A DNA stretch of 24,525 bases from a virus. Taxonomy: Duplodnaviria; Caudoviricetes. The stretch is taken from positions 1 through 24,525 of IMG/VR virus record IMGVR_UViG_3300030330_002711. The stretch is one strand, 5' to 3'. Positions 3,583 to 24,295 of the stretch are shown piece after piece. How positions within the stretch are numbered: the stretch's first letter is position 1; every line of letters begins with the position of its first letter. The notes below the pieces were generated by a model that saw nothing but the letters and a program-made list of their open reading frames with translations, did not search any database and was not told the origin of the DNA. A program made the translations under genes and the position numbers.

Positions 3583-3911
3583 TGGCGAAGCTCTTAGAGA
3601 CTCGTCTGCCAATAGAATCAAACGATTTTACCAGAAGAGAGATATTTAATAGATTAGTAAGAATATTAGAAATAAACTTAGGTAGTTTTGATCCCAATAA
3701 CACACCGCAGTTTAACGATCAGCAAATAAGCACTTTAGCTTTTAAACAAGGTGATGTAATATGGAACACATCTATTGGCGTGTTGCAAGTATATACGGGC
3801 AACAAATGGATACAGCTTCATAATCCAGCTAATCCACAAGGATATGAACTGCAAGCAAATATAGGGAGTGTTTCTGTCAAAACTAATGGAAATATTTCTA
3901 TAAATGTGTGA
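3582..3911 (+). CDS. Hypothetical virion-module protein
   Basis: TAATG coupling; GDVIWNTSIGVLQVYTGNKW resembles tail/fibre-associated motifs. Confidence 0.7.
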   Translation: MAKLLETRLPIESNDFTRREIFNRLVRILEINLGSFDPNNTPQFNDQQISTLAFKQGDVIWNTSIGVLQVYTGNKWIQLHNPANPQGYELQANIGSVSVKTNGNISINV

Positions 3912-7400: not shown

Positions 7401-10400
7401 GAAAATTAGACTGCCTAATGGTCGTTATATAAAGGTAAAAACTAATGACCTTCAATTAGCCAAAGAACGAGCCGCAGAATACTATCGCCAAGGTGGTGAA
7501 GGCTTTATAGATGCTAAAACTCAAAGGTTAGCCGAAGCATACGACAGTAATTTCGACTACGATACAGGTGTAGATGCTCCTTGGCTTAGAGCTAAACTAG
7601 GAGCGCAAGAAACTTTACTTGGAAAAGAGAAAGTTTTAGAAGAAGCCGTAGGAACGAACGGGTATACGATAGATAGTTCGGGTAAGCTTGCTTTGACACC
7701 GTTAGGCTTAGAAAGAATGGGTATACCTACCTCCACTAATCAAAACGTAGTAATAGATGAAACTGGTTTTGGTTTTGGAGATTTAGCAGATTTTTCTGGC
7801 GTAGTAGGGCCAATAGTGGGATCTATAGCAGGGTCAATAATAACGAGAGGCAGAATAAAACCAAAAGTCCCTGGTATAAAAACTAAAACACTTATGGACA
7901 TAGGTAAAATATCCGTGGGTACAGGAGCAGGTGCAGTAGCAGGAAAATCCAGTGAAGAAGCTTTGGAGTATGTCACTGGATTACAAGATCAAAGTCCTGG
8001 AGAATTAGCTGAATTAGCTGCTCAAGAATTTGCAATAGGAGCTGGTGGAGAATTTGCCTTTGGTGTTGGTGGAAAACTACTGAAATCTGCATTTGGGCAA
8101 AATGCTATAAACGTACAAGGGGCGCAAATAGGTAGGGACAAACTTCTTAAAGCTTCTGCTTTAGCAGGGCCAGGTGTGACAGATGGTAATGATGTTTATA
8201 AAGGTGCCGTCGCATTAGCAGCATTAGAAAGTCCATTAATAGGTAGGTTACAACCAATTTTAGAGACTATAGGTGGTTCTAAATCAAGAGTGAAAGGTTT
8301 AGAAGACACTTTGATAGCAACTTTAAAAAATAATTACAGAGCCACAAACGATTTGACGGAGCAGTTTAGTAAATCTGTAGATGAAATTAAAGCTTCAGGT
8401 TTTGCAGACGCAGCATCTGATGTGGTTGCAGGCAGAGCAATACGGGAAATTTTAGAAAAACAAGAATTATCTGCACGTAAAGCATTAGATGTAGCTGAAT
8501 CCAAATTAGATGAAACAGTTAGTAATATTTTGAGAAATATGGATGCTTTCGCAACGCCAGCTACCACAGAGACTGGCTTCGCAATAAGAGAGTTTACTGA
8601 ACAAGCTTACAAGAGTTGGAAAGATACTTCTGATGATTTATATGCTCAAGTGAATAAATTTTTTGAAAAAGATGTAAATCTTGTTGATTTAGCTGCTGAA
8701 TCTGGTAAATCTGTAGAAGAATTTTCCGCTTTACTACCAAGAGGAGGCAAGATAACCGAACAGCTTGAATGGATAGATGCCACACCAATTAGAACATATG
8801 CAGATTTACTTGACGCAAAATTAATAGGTAAAGGAGTATCTGAAGAAGACGAAATTAGAAAAAGTTTACAGTTTTTAAAAGATTTAGGTGGTAACGATAG
8901 CACTATTTCATTAGAAAATTTATTAAGAATAAGGTCTGATCTAGCAACTAAAGCAAGAGCTACATCAGAGGGTGTAGATTTTGCAAAGTTTTCGGATATG
9001 GAGAGATCAAATTTTTTAGATTCTATAGATCGTATAATAAACAATCTTGCAGATGGTGACGAGTACGCAGTCAAACTATATGCAAATGCGGTAGGTAGAA
9101 GAAGAGTTACAAAACAATTAGCCAACAAAGTTAAATCTCACATGGATGCCTTAAAAATTGCAAACTCCTATTTTGCAAGAGGCTTACAAGCTTTTGATAG
9201 GCCAACTTTTAAAAGCATTTTGAATGACGCTCAAGCAGGTGGATTTGACACTGACCAAATATTAACTAAAGTCCTCAAAAAAAATAACGGTCAAGATTTG
9301 AAAAGATTTTTAGATACTTTAGATTTTAAAACGGCTGGTATAAGAAAACAATATGACGAACTTGGAAGAGTATCTCGTTCAGGTGAACCAAGCAGAGTGC
9401 CATTCTTAAAAGTAGGTGGTGAAGACATACTTGCTAAAGCAGATATAAAACTAAATCAAACTGTTTTTGAAAATAAAGAACAAGTCAGAAACATGTTGCA
9501 AAGAGAGTTTATTAGGAACCTAGTCAAGAATATAAATCGTACAGGCAACATGAATTACAACAAATTAGCTAACGCCATAGATGGATATGGCACTACTGCT
9601 GATGAATTGTTTGGAGGTTCGGCTGCTAAAAATGAGTTTTTAAAAACACTTAGAGATACAGAAGAACTCGTAAACGTAGGATCACTAGATGAATTCAATA
9701 ATCTAATAACTAGCAAAAGTTCAGCTCAAGGTATACAAGATGCTTTAAAAGAAAGAATTATGGCACAAGCTGATTTACAGGACATACAAAAATTAGATGT
9801 ATTTAGAAGAATACAAAGAGGAACAATAGATTCTGAAGAAATAGTAGCAAAGATATTTAAGCCAGCAAGTTCTGATGAAATTGTAAAAGTAAAAGAATTG
9901 TTAGGTGGGCCAGAATCTGAGGCTTTCAAACAGTTTCAAGAAACGGCGATGCGTAAAATATTGCAAGATGTTGTAAACCCAGGAGAGGATGTAATAACAA
10001 AACTTTTTAACGATGGTGCATTTGTAAAAGCGATTGATAGGTACGGAAGCGAAGTTTTAGAACAAACTTTTGGTGAAGAACAAGCGAAAGCTTTAATCAA
10101 AGCAAAAGACGTGGTGAAATTTGCGATGGATGGAGAAAGGGCTGCTGGCGGTGGATCATTATTTACACAAGGTTTCTTGTTCAGATACATCTTTGATCCA
10201 ATAAGAGCAACTGGAGTATTTACCCCAATAAGAATCATGGCTTCTCTTTTAGGAAGACCACAGGTTATCAAATGGCTTGCTGGAGATGTGTCTAATAAAG
10301 AGTTCGCAAGACAAATACCTACTTTACTTGATTACTATGGTGTGGCTTTCCCAGCTGCAAAAGTTGGCGCATCACAACTTGGTATCAGGGAAGTTGTAGA

Positions 10401-13648: not shown

Positions 13649-13664
13649 TTTCATGGAGAAAGAT

Positions 13665-14381
13665 ATGAACGATAGTATATTATCACGTATAAAAACTCCA
13701 AACGAACTTGTGGAACAACAGGGTGCTAAGTTGCTGATCTACGGTGAGTCTGGAGCAGGAAAAACGACTTCTCTCAAAACTGCACCTGGTAAAACCTTAG
13801 TTGTAAGTATGGAGAGTGGTTTATTATCTATTAAAGATGCTGACAATTTGACGGCGATTGAAGTCAAAGAAGCATCCGAAATAGAAGAGATAGCACAAAT
13901 GTTAGAAAACGGCACACTCGAATACGATACAGTATGTTTGGATAGTATTACCGAGATGTCAGAGATTTTGTTATCTCAGGAAAAAGCAAAATCAAAAGAT
14001 CCACGAAGAGCATACGGAGAGGTAATCGAAGTAATGATTAAAACTATGCGTAGGTTTAGAGATTTGCCAATACATGTAGTTTTTATTGCCAAACAAGCAA
14101 GAGAACGTGACGAGGCAACTGGCATGTTTCATTATCAACCGATGATGGTGGGTGCTAAGTTACCGACACAAATACCTTACTTTTTTGATGAAGTGCTAGT
14201 CCTCAGAACTTTTGACGACGAAACTAAAGAAGGTAATAAGATTGTCAGTCGTTGGTTTCAAACAAGGGTGGGACAAAACTACATAGCGAAAGACAGAAGT
14301 GGGAAGTTAGCAGAGTTTGAAGAACCTAACTTAACTAATATTATTAACAAACTAGGATTTGCATCAGGGGGTGCAGTATGA
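13665..14381 (+). CDS. sak4: Sak4-like AAA ATPase (single-strand annealing recombinase, AAA_24)
   Basis: Walker A YGESGAGKTT, Walker B VCLDS, AKDRSGKL C-terminal motif, followed by an SSB. Start 13665 after GGAG (13653 possible). Confidence 0.85.
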   Translation: MNDSILSRIKTPNELVEQQGAKLLIYGESGAGKTTSLKTAPGKTLVVSMESGLLSIKDADNLTAIEVKEASEIEEIAQMLENGTLEYDTVCLDSITEMSEILLSQEKAKSKDPRRAYGEVIEVMIKTMRRFRDLPIHVVFIAKQARERDEATGMFHYQPMMVGAKLPTQIPYFFDEVLVLRTFDDETKEGNKIVSRWFQTRVGQNYIAKDRSGKLAEFEEPNLTNIINKLGFASGGAV

Positions 14382-14887
14382 GCGATTTTGAAGGATTAGA
14401 TATAAACATGGAAGAAACAGAAAGCGGTTCATTCATACCAGAGGGCGAATACCCTTGTATTATAAATGTATCCGAAATAGCAACTTCACAGGCAGGTAAC
14501 GATTACCTAAAATTAGAACTATCAGTAACTGGTGAGAAATACAATGGTTGGAGAGTGAGGAAAAACTTCAATCTTTGGTATAAACATGCAGATGCAGAAA
14601 AACAAAGTAAGACCAGAGGTTACGCTAATAAAGATTTTGCACGTTTTTTGAAAGCATGTGGCATGGATAAACCACCAAAAAGTCATGTTGCCTTACAAGG
14701 TAAAGAAGTAATCTGCAAGTTAATAGTAAAAGAAGCGGAAGAGGGATCGGAGTACGGGCCAAGTAATGAAGTACAATCTTTTAGTAAAATAGAAAGATTG
14801 ACTCCTCCGAAAGCATCTAGCTTGCCACCGAGCATGTCAGAGGACAAAGAGAAGGAAGATGATACTCCAAAACCACCTTCTTTATAA
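14378..14887 (+). CDS. DUF669-like phage single-stranded DNA-binding protein
   Basis: IPEGEY…SQAGNDYLKLEL…GEKYNG…NFNL…LQGK…NEV pattern; ATGA-coupled to sak4. Confidence 0.8.
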   Translation: MSDFEGLDINMEETESGSFIPEGEYPCIINVSEIATSQAGNDYLKLELSVTGEKYNGWRVRKNFNLWYKHADAEKQSKTRGYANKDFARFLKACGMDKPPKSHVALQGKEVICKLIVKEAEEGSEYGPSNEVQSFSKIERLTPPKASSLPPSMSEDKEKEDDTPKPPSL

Positions 14888-14900
14888 ATCCACACGGCTC

Positions 14901-15050
14901 GCTAGGGGTCGAAGAGTAAAGTGTTCTCCATACCCTAATCATCGCACTTTCTCGACCTAGCAAAGTTGTACCTTATTGCTACGAGGCTCCTCCTATATGG
15001 CCTTATTGAACAACCTTGGTGCAGTTGTGTAGCGAAACGCACCTTTTTTT
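14901..15050 (+). ncRNA. Candidate structured RNA with two anti-SD loops and a terminator
   Basis: Hairpin 14901-14961 (GCTAG/CTAGC, GTC/GAC, GAG/CTC, AAAGTG/CACTTT; loop TCTCCATACC…), hairpin 14983-15004 (loop CCTCCTATAT), then a GGTGC/GCACC-T7 hairpin. Confidence 0.5.
15018..15050 (+). terminator. Intrinsic terminator-like hairpin
   Basis: GGTGC(A)GTT…AAC GCACC followed by seven T. Confidence 0.55.
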
Positions 15051-15064
15051 ATAAGGAGAGATTT

Positions 15065-15397
15065 ATCAAACCAAGTTCAGCAAAAGCAAAAGGCAGACTG
15101 CTACAACAGAAGTTTAGAAATATGTTAGTAGATATTCTTGGACTTGACGAAGATGATCTTGAAAGTCGTCCGATGGGGAGTGCTGGTGAAGACATAATTA
15201 TGGGCAAGCAATCCAGAGACAAGTTTCCCTACAGCATCGAGTGCAAGAACCAAGAGGCTATCAATATCTGGAAGTCCTACGACCAAGCATCAAAAAACTG
15301 TAAAGGGTATGAGCCTTTAGTTGTTCTCAAAAGGAATAGAAGTAAAGTATTGGTTTTATTAGATGCAGAACATTTTGTAAAACTGCATAAAGACTAA
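15065..15397 (+). CDS. Holliday junction resolvase-like PD-(D/E)XK nuclease, apparent ATC start
   Basis: KPSSAKAKGR…MGSAGEDI…YSIECKNQE…EPLVVLKRNR; AAGGAG 6 nt before an in-frame ATC at 15065. Confidence 0.75.
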   Translation: MKPSSAKAKGRLLQQKFRNMLVDILGLDEDDLESRPMGSAGEDIIMGKQSRDKFPYSIECKNQEAINIWKSYDQASKNCKGYEPLVVLKRNRSKVLVLLDAEHFVKLHKD

Positions 15398-17208: not shown

Positions 17209-17238
17209 TTGAAATAAATATTTACATATGTTTATAAT
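17209..17238 (+). promoter_or_regulatory. Sigma70-like rightward promoter
   Basis: TTGAAA-18 nt-TATAAT. Confidence 0.6.
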
Positions 17239-17246
17239 AAAGTATT

Positions 17247-17299
17247 GGGTAAGACAGGAACTACATACCATAAAAACACACATACCCCCTGTCTTGCCC
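17247..17299 (+). promoter_or_regulatory. 5' leader hairpin with a large loop
   Basis: GGGTAAGACAGG / CCTGTCTTGCCC, 12 bp with one U-G wobble on the + strand; loop carries ACATACC twice. Confidence 0.6.
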
Positions 17300-17326
17300 T
17301 TTCTTTAAATCAATATGGAGAAAGGT

Positions 17327-21921: not shown

Positions 21922-22176
21922 TTAATACCCCCTCATTACTGGGATTGTTTCCAATCCCTCAATTGAAGTAGCTAATGAGCCACCATCATTGCCTTCATCA
22001 TCTGCCATTGGGAATATCCATGAGCCATCAGTAAATGTTATAGCTAAAGGTGCTTTATCCCACATCATTTCTTCAACCTCATATTTTGTTAGATATTCAA
22101 CCTTGGCAATGGTTTTTCCCACCAGTTCTGATGAAATCTTCTTTTCCCATCTATCAGTAGTATTATTTTTACTCAT
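21922..22176 (-). CDS. Conserved-looking phage hypothetical protein
   Basis: LVGKTI…FTDGSWIFPMADDEGNDGG motif; AGGAG SD; ATGA coupling. Confidence 0.8.
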   Translation of the reverse strand: MSKNNTTDRWEKKISSELVGKTIAKVEYLTKYEVEEMMWDKAPLAITFTDGSWIFPMADDEGNDGGSLATSIEGLETIPVMRGY

Positions 22177-22883
22177 GCTTGTTCTCCTATGTTATTAATA
22201 AAATTTATAAATGTTTGTTTCGGGAATGTATCATCAAGATAATATTCAGTTTTACCATTGAGTAAATCTTTGATGAATTTGATAACTTCTTCATCTCTCC
22301 ATTTGAATAAATTAAGTTTATGATTGGTATGTTCCTCTAATATCCCAACTAATCCGTATAATGTTGGTTTGTTGACGAAATCAACCACCTCATTGAAGTA
22401 CATGGTTTGAAATGAAAACTCAATGCCGTTTCCATAATCTCTTTCGTATGTTGCTGAAAATCGCCAATCTTCAAATTCAGATAAATCTTTATGACCAATA
22501 CTAAGATATGCTTGTTGCCTACCTTCTTTTGTCGGGTGATTAATCCATATCTGATAGCCATTGTGAGAGAAACTTGGTAATTCATCATTTCCATAAGATA
22601 CATTTTCCCATTCATCAGGAATATCTAAGTATCTGTAATAATCTTCCCAAGTGAGTTTTTTCTGATAATCTAATTCACTCAATATAATTTTTCTCCTATA
22701 CATATTTTTTCTGGTAGTGTTGGCTAAATCAATGTTACCAACCTTGTGTAATAAAATAGAGTCAACAAAAACTTCTGTTTTTATTTCATTGTTTAGAATG
22801 TCGGTTAATATTCCACACTCAGAATCAGAGTCAAATGTATCAAACCAATCACACACATCTTCAAATTCAATGTGTTTTCTCAT
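22173..22883 (-). CDS. Hypothetical early-region protein
   Basis: 236 aa, WENVSYGNDELPSF motif, AAGGAG SD, TAATG coupling. Confidence 0.8.
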   Translation of the reverse strand: MRKHIEFEDVCDWFDTFDSDSECGILTDILNNEIKTEVFVDSILLHKVGNIDLANTTRKNMYRRKIILSELDYQKKLTWEDYYRYLDIPDEWENVSYGNDELPSFSHNGYQIWINHPTKEGRQQAYLSIGHKDLSEFEDWRFSATYERDYGNGIEFSFQTMYFNEVVDFVNKPTLYGLVGILEEHTNHKLNLFKWRDEEVIKFIKDLLNGKTEYYLDDTFPKQTFINFINNIGEQA

Positions 22884-24032: not shown

Positions 24033-24197
24033 GTCGGGTGTCGGGTTCATATTTAAGTGTCGGGTGTCGGGTTATCTCTTATATATGGATATAGATGATA
24101 GATAGATATATACAGATAGATGATGATATTGAGATATTGTCGGGTGTCGGGTTTAGTCGGGTGTCGGGTTAATATTTAAAACCCCGACAAGACCGAC
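24033..24197 (+). repeat. Four GTCGGGTGTCGGGTT units plus inverted copies, interspersed with GATA-type low-complexity tracts
   Basis: Exact 15-mers at 24033, 24059, 24139, 24156; CCCGAC at 24183 and CCGAC at 24193. Confidence 0.9.
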
Positions 24198-24295
24198 AGA
24201 TAGATATAGACTGATAGATAGATTTATATATAAAAAAAGTGGCTTATAAAATTTTAGATCCAAAAAAATTGGGTTATATAGAGATAAAATCCTGG

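Follow-up and report, generated by a model that had tools for sequence, protein, structure and literature searches.

OppZ and CarZ are bacterial sRNAs that come from the 3' end of an operon, are processed by RNase E and base-pair with a transcript to inhibit translation, as was shown experimentally (PMC7398697). RNAs of the cuckoo/CcsR type carry CCUCCUCCC in each hairpin loop; their CIN1 subgroup lies beside a DUF1127 gene, and CcsR of R. sphaeroides originates from a 3' UTR (PMC8034643). RydC depends on a pseudoknot for its stability, has a U-rich tail and a 5' single-stranded seed, and needs Hfq (PMC4337610). STAXI has been found near ssb and other DNA-handling genes (PMC2864571), and the pseudoknot in the T4 gene 32 leader is the nucleation site of gp32 (PMC535899).

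The DNA analysed here (the window) is a phage record of 24.5 kb (24,525 nt) that is 48% complete. Its replication region runs in the order sak4, DUF669 ssb, gap, RusA-like resolvase and then a convergent block with exonuclease VIII. A preliminary description had placed in this gap, put at roughly 175 nt, a small RNA with two simple hairpins of the cuckoo kind, each exposing an anti-SD loop; AbcR sRNAs are named together with cuckoo/CcsR as repressors that act through such loops. We found that the gap between the ssb stop (ending at 14887) and the resolvase start (15065) measures 177 nt (14888-15064), that the coordinates given were all correct, and that UUCUCCAU, beginning at 14924, and CCUCCUAUAU, beginning at 14989, each lie inside a hairpin loop of the predicted fold. 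The scaffold proved different: the gap reads as two predicted pseudoknot modules in tandem, which the preliminary description had missed. Module 1 (14895-14961) is a predicted H-type pseudoknot with a hairpin in loop 3. The features of the region are as follows.

13665-14381, plus strand: sak4, Sak4-like ssDNA annealing protein (PHROG 124, E 4e-51), at the head of the RNA-carrying operon
14378-14887, plus strand: ssb, DUF669 single-strand DNA binding protein (PF05037, E 1.9e-10; PHROG 378); the predicted RNA starts 7 nt 3' of its stop
14895-14911, plus strand: module 1 stem 1, 14895-14899 with 14907-14911, loop 1 being C14900; covaries over three groups
14901-14961, plus strand: module 1 stem 2, 14901-14906 with 14956-14961; sequence nearly invariant
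14914-14953, plus strand: loop-3 hairpin with the first anti-SD loop (14924-14944), which shows UUCUCCAUA; stem changes, loop kept
14978-15033, plus strand: module 2 outer stem, 14978-14982 with 15029-15033; encloses hairpin H2 and the stem 15010-15014/15024-15028
14983-15004, plus strand: hairpin H2 with the second anti-SD loop, 14989-14998 (CCUCCUAUAU)
15018-15050, plus strand: last stem, 15018-15022 with 15039-15043, and 7 U; predicted terminator and also stem 2 of the second pseudoknot
15053-15397, plus strand: RusA-like resolvase (PHROG 244, E 2e-17), SD 15053-15058, apparent non-AUG start ATC 15065

Like OppZ/CarZ (PMC7398697), the element sits at an operon 3' end before a predicted terminator and, in CUCC(A/G)U lineages only, has a conserved seed complementary to a ribosome-binding site; pairing with the sak4 leader would here equal the same feedback. 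Unlike them, it is phage-encoded, has a predicted pseudoknot scaffold, and has another operon as its best candidate target. Anti-SD words in hairpin loops are shared with cuckoo/CcsR (PMC8034643), but the loops read UUCUCCAUA and CCUCCUAUAU without CCUCCUCCC and are fitted to particular leaders, the scaffold is a pseudoknot, no DUF1127 gene is adjacent, and there is no Rfam match. The element resembles RydC (PMC4337610) in a predicted pseudoknot followed by a U-rich tail and differs in that its seed lies inside the loop-3 hairpin; no sequence match to RydC was found. With STAXI (RF01728; PMC2864571) it has in common a pseudoknot with a hairpin before the last strand, proximity to ssb-type genes and a possible tandem arrangement, but the CCAAUG lead-in, UGAGA loop, UUCG tetraloops and 2-3 repeats of one unit are absent, the stem sequences differ, and there is no Rfam match.

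Rfam searches, which the preliminary description had suggested, were run with the window, the gap by itself, a compact variant and five loci of groups 2 and 3 (below), and none gave a credible match. HDV-like ribozymes have P3/L3 with P1.1 and pistol ribozymes a P2-P3 core; both were rejected as identities on the just 7-9 nt between stem 2 and the hairpin and on the lack of an Rfam match. Blastn of the gap against cultured phages gave no match, scans of genome contigs gave no relative, and neither a close cultured relative nor a host was found; even the nearest cultured phages are remote, with 35% for the primase and 40% for a structural protein. In the literature we found no description of the element; an earlier unlisted one is possible, and later RNA-motif catalogues were outside the scope of the search.

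Relatives were gathered by protein search, independently of the RNA motif. Searches with sak4 and ssb gave group 1 (121 loci used, three loci at 28-30% identity excluded), a search from P0046 gave group 2 (62 of 63 loci used), and alignment A3 supplied group 3, of which the best 80 of 152 loci were used. Complete beyond the ssb stop were 111 loci of group 1, 57 of group 2 and 78 of the best 80 of 152 in group 3, in total 246; these loci are not independent genomes and hold 82 distinct element sequences.

We found that stem 1 of module 1 begins 3-8 nt past the ssb stop in 241 of the 246 loci of these three divergent phage groups (group 3 being the best 80 of 152). The flanking genes of the element are DUF669 and a PDDEXK/RusA-like nuclease. 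A GCUAGG...CCUAG pair is present in 110/111 loci of group 1, 57/57 of group 2 and 74/78 of group 3 (best 80 of 152), and the bases on either side of GCUAGG pair in a second stem, crossing the first, with a loop 1 of 0-2 nt and no loop 2. For these flanking bases (stem 1), 45 of 46 distinct combinations give at least 5 pairs, and the mean is 5.52 pairs compared with 4.45 ± 0.16 when partners are shuffled (maximum 4.91 in 1000 shuffles), the loop-1 offset being free in observed and shuffled sets alike. Group 1 opens stem 1 with a C-G pair and group 2 with A-U; in group 3 there are many other versions. Stem 2 is paired in 99.2% of cells in 61 sequences; because it is nearly invariant (5 of 6 pairs never change), it has no double-change support. 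G.U pairs leave the minus strand unable to fold, which points to a plus-strand RNA.

A simple-hairpin reading of module 1 was rejected, as the two bases preceding stem 2 vary (AA, GA, AC, AG) whereas the strands of stem 1 are kept or covary. In the window variant stem 1 has a competitor, a long plain hairpin of -15.7 kcal, and in the consensus fold an alternative partner exists for the 3' strand of stem 2. The paired figure for the loop-3 hairpin, 61.7%, is affected by alignment register and was excluded from use. Folding, put forward as a check, gave a weak signal for the window by itself (z -1.38; 16 of 200 shuffles). In the relatives the stems are conserved with compensatory changes, and the exposed loops are conserved as well.

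In the near relatives of the window, module 2 consists of an outer stem, H2, a short stem with a loop that pairs to the final strand, and seven U. Over 13 distinct sequences 98.1% of cells pair; 6 of the 13 have a C-G to G-C exchange in the outer stem, which also shows a single change of A-U to G.U. In group 3 (best 80 of 152 loci) module 2 has the same topology in unrelated sequence, with 99.1% paired and double changes at 7 pairs (0 of 500 shuffles). Among the 241 loci it occurs in 17 of group 1 and 17 of group 3. Modules 1 and 2 are not repeats of one unit, and model R1 finds one strong copy per genome. The terminator claimed for the end of the gap is present as a predicted hairpin of -9.0 kcal with a 9-nt loop and 7 U, the last stem of module 2; a terminator scan of the window did not call it.

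The predicted RNA after ssb, in which stem 1 and module 2 covary, recurs across three phage groups and very probably represents a real, conserved and apparently undescribed family of phage RNA structures.

Five exceptional loci end in a different pseudoknot-like structure, four with module 2 only (group 3) and one (L205) otherwise. L205, a distant relative, has after ssb (3736-3825) an unrelated pseudoknot-like end with 7-bp and 12-bp stems and a U-run, read by eye; the best partner of its loop word UUCCUUU is its own sak4 leader (rank 1 of 4). Model R1 gave no hit in the more distant DUF669 loci L209, L210, L419 and L540. L209, a GC-rich phage whose ssb is 30% identical, has two plain hairpins after the stop (2459-2555) with loops CCCCCCUCCU and UUCUCACUUCC and then a T-run, which is the same idea with the pseudoknot absent.

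The position of a pseudoknot directly behind a stop codon recalls recoding signals. Known recoding pseudoknots have comparable spacing, and the fixed distance of 3-8 nt would suit stimulated readthrough or frameshifting at the end of ssb, but all three stops are used (TAA 187, TAG 47, TGA 7), readthrough would add at most 10 codons in 190 of 241 loci, and a slippery heptamer occurs in only 17 of 241. We found neither a leaky stop nor a slippery site that is conserved together with an extension, and rejected recoding as extremely improbable.

Another precedent is the T4 gene 32 operator, also an H-type pseudoknot adjoining a phage ssb gene and, by eye, of the same class, with a 1-nt loop 1, no loop 2 and outer four stem-2 pairs GCUA/UAGC followed by A. 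By analogy, SSB could load on the pseudoknot, spread over the adjacent U-rich stretch and repress the resolvase or downstream gene, or alter RNA stability. The likeness in stem 2 and its invariance, which suggests protein recognition, agree with such an operator, as does the group-2 resolvase ATG, which lies within about 9 nt without an SD. However, the T4 pseudoknot is on the 5' side of ssb, where a long unstructured tract and the SD follow it (PMC535899), whereas this element lies 3' and has an inserted hairpin. In most loci of groups 1 and 3, moreover, the next gene is convergent and leaves nothing to repress in cis; a long UUAAA-type tract is absent, DUF669 is not gp32, and a 4-bp likeness can be chance. 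We regard an operator of this kind as quite unlikely.

In the window (15053-15067) the resolvase has an apparent ATC start behind a strong SD. Among 26 distinct leaders in relatives, ATC or ATT is the start in 7, every one with an SD, and 14 of the 18 leaders starting with ATG have no SD, a pattern that suggests selection for low translation. The near relatives L003, L009 and L077 have an extra gene without an SD between element and resolvase, a variable cargo slot. In loop-less group-1 phages (L027 3040-3450, minus strand) a convergent PDDEXK_15 nuclease replaces the co-directional resolvase, and its stop abuts the pseudoknot.

Turning to the exposed loops, we found CUCC(A/G) in the loop-3 hairpin of 26/110 loci in group 1, 57/57 in group 2 and 14/74 in group 3 (best 80 of 152). 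Loop 3 holds CCCC in 60/74 loci of group 3 (best 80 of 152), and in group 1 it is short in 70/110 loci and holds another word in 14/110. The existence of loop-less lineages means that the seed is dispensable. These lineages retain the pseudoknot, often squeezed between the ssb stop and the stop of the convergent gene; hence, the element probably also has a loop-independent role, forming or protecting a 3' end.

Such a cis role might be the only one: pseudoknot and U-run would end and protect the sak4-ssb mRNA, the loops would be passengers or tune folding, and leader matches would reflect shared ancestry. Besides the loop-less lineages, this is favoured by at least 4 T within 10 nt 3' of stem 2 in 209 of 241 loci, by the replacement of module 1 with module 2 in 4 group-3 loci, and by the unrelated pseudoknot and U-run of L205. 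It leaves unexplained why the CUCC(A/G) word is kept in all 57 group-2 loci although its stem changes, and why leaders divide by loop type as described below. We consider a purely cis-acting element unlikely; a cis 3'-end role is probably real in addition to the antisense role.

Pairing of the loops with leaders concerns the following sites.

13653-13660, plus strand: sak4 leader, SD GGAGAA before the start ATG 13665; a secondary candidate for pairing with loop 1, 8 bp
17209-17238, plus strand: sigma70-type promoter match, 11/12 by consensus match alone; precedes the small-gene/methyltransferase operon
17314-17322, plus strand: leader of the ATG 17327 gene, the first in that operon, SD 17317; best-supported candidate target of loop 1, 9 bp
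22693-22702, minus strand: small-gene cluster leader with start codon TTG 22682; loop 2's best candidate target, 10 bp including one G.U

Within the window ATGGAGAA occurs at 13653-13660, at 17315-17322, within coding sequence at 10130 and as the loop, that is, 4 matches compared with 1.16 expected (4 of 100 shuffles), and the 9-nt match TATGGAGAA at 17314 was confirmed. Both complementarities reported for the first loop are thus real, and both do fall on the SDs of first genes in operons, 13653 on that of sak4, whose relatives begin at the equivalent of ATG 13665, and 17317 on that of the ATG 17327 gene. Two of nine GGAGAA leaders in the window have AT in front (P ~0.14 at the 7.4% background), and when whole loops are compared with whole initiation regions these two leaders give -10.8 and -11.9 kcal/mol, outside the top six of the window. 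For the window alone, the case for antisense loops is weak; support comes from relatives.

On longer contigs all GGAG-type leaders were ranked by the length of uninterrupted pairing they can form with the loop; a heuristic that probably took the wrong ORF in G021, G055 and G059 located the first gene of the sigma70 operon. At the corresponding promoter, group-2 relatives have TTGACA-17-TATACT. The leader of this operon reads ATGGAG in 20 of 24 CUCC(A/G)U genomes (ACGGAG in 1, CTGGAG in 3) compared with 0 of 26 genomes with other loops and a background of 27 of 365 leaders. It is the top-ranked leader in 16 of the 24 genomes and among the top two in 21, with some ties, and the gene downstream of it differs among genomes. 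Loop tails fit the leader flanks as well, in several genomes, giving for instance 10-11 bp in G041, G049, G047, G032 and G003, and the A/G variation of the loop opposite a target U is the pattern of RNA wobble; G045 has G opposite C. The duplexes are short, with energies of -10.8 to -12.7 kcal/mol. With CUCC fixed and the loop flanks shuffled, summed pairing over 15 representatives was 131 observed compared with 82 ± 5.8 (maximum 108 in 2000 shuffles), and with leaders permuted among the 15 loops it was 128 compared with 119 ± 4.3 (p 0.03; not significant within groups, p 0.13 and 0.56). On the sak4 tree the loop was lost twice separately in group 1, each loss accompanied by a TAGGAG leader. 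Because the genomes are related, the independent loop/leader events number about three or four. Across the genomes compared, the CUCC(A/G)U loop goes with the ATGGAG leader.

The sak4 leader follows the loop in some lineages only. AT precedes its GGAG in 7 of 22 CUCC(A/G)U genomes and 0 of 28 others, and it ranks 1-2 in 8 of the 22. In the three group-3 genomes with CTGGAG (the G028 lineage) the sak4 leader pairs over 11 bp at rank 1, that of G028 having been chosen after the result was known. In three close group-2 relatives (L406, L408 and L413) loop and sak4 leader show a matched change. For the proposal that the RNA targets phage leaders, the comparison supports the 17314 leader as a candidate, which by pairing length recurs as best partner across two phage groups, and the sak4 leader in part; by energy, as noted, neither leader stands out in the window.

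For the second loop the best partner is a third leader, at 22693-22702 on the minus strand, which is rank 1 of 23 window leaders. In 4 of 4 near relatives whose sequence extends to the minus-strand cluster and that keep the loop, a TATAGGAG leader comes first. Two near relatives, L266 and L285, have a U-rich UUCAU loop in its place.

Further observations concern these sites. The UUCAU-bearing loop (L266 560-717, minus strand; L285 701-858) is complementary over 11 nt to a small-gene start region in G013 and pairs over 13 bp, G.U included, with the operon leader of G001; within the two fragments themselves, the sole match to it is the loop itself. In the window the 236-aa ORF at 22173-22883 (minus strand) resembles two genes fused in frame; in G004 and G013 a stop codon precedes an ATG that follows the same TATAGGAG leader. 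The 17327 gene has in its leader a 12-bp hairpin (17246-17306) with a C/A-rich loop of 28-29 nt and a T-run, kept with compensatory changes in G003, G004, G001 and G013; its loop has CAUACC twice, the complement of the GGTATG start region, and it looks like an attenuator or a further RNA. Near the right end of the window (24101-24205) is a GC-rich hairpin region with repeated GTCGGG words, a possible origin or packaging signal.

The CCCC-type loops behave differently. In G022, G024, G029, G058 and G064, neither leader is matched beyond 4-5 bp. In near-complete genomes CCCCC loops have no clear target of their own, the best being a 6-bp fit to a GGGGGA leader (by eye); the lysozyme leader was not found as their target in G022 or G024, and a fit to a GGGG-type SD style was ruled out, as those phages use GGAG.

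Loops of this kind might instead be directed at the host, pairing with host mRNAs (specific or general SDs), or the RNA might be a decoy for a host defence protein, for example a type III toxin. The C-run of the CCCCC loops has no SD-placed complement of at least 8 nt in near-complete G024 (97%) or in G022, both GGAG users, and loop 1 pairs with many initiation regions, both as expected of a host target. The loops, however, read CUCCAU, CUCCGU or CUCCUAU, not the 16S anti-SD, and fit the flanks of their own leaders better than shuffled loops do. Type III antitoxin RNAs are pseudoknot units in tandem repeats; such an RNA or its mimic was rejected, as the element is single-copy, without tandem repeats and without an Rfam antitoxin match. 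The suggestion of a general shut-off of host translation found nothing here to support it, and host direction as a whole appears improbable.

With moderate confidence we favour a 3'UTR antisense RNA on a pseudoknot scaffold that would regulate the phage's own leaders, chiefly that at 17314-17322. The RNA would be the 3' end of the sak4-ssb transcript, and the pseudoknots would stabilise it, alone or after processing. Its exposed C-rich loops would be antisense seeds that block ribosome binding at the phage's own operon leaders. As the abundant replication transcript accumulates, loop 1 would pair in trans with the leader of the sigma70-driven operon, and loop 2 with one of the leaders in the small-gene cluster on the minus strand; the sak4 leader itself may be paired by loop 1 in some lineages, a negative feedback. 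We infer from promoter consensus matches and gene size that the target operons are early. The result would be an RNA-based early-to-middle switch as replication proteins build up. In a more speculative variant, which we think has little probability, the fixed scaffold would dock SSB (or SSB with Sak4) in place of Hfq and carry swappable seeds for phage or, with CCCCC loops, host targets, and the level of free SSB would time early-gene shut-off.

Few regulatory RNAs of environmental phages have been described, and sequence seldom reveals their targets. The present RNA has a predicted structure, is unmatched in Rfam and occurs in three divergent phage groups, and changes in its loop go together with changes in a phage leader. 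The link between ssb and a pseudoknot recurs in T4 gene 32 and in STAXI, which is still unexplained. As a small scaffold with an exchangeable loop, the element is a candidate for the design of synthetic antisense RNAs, and for the phages that carry it, it is a candidate RNA-based switch of phage gene expression.
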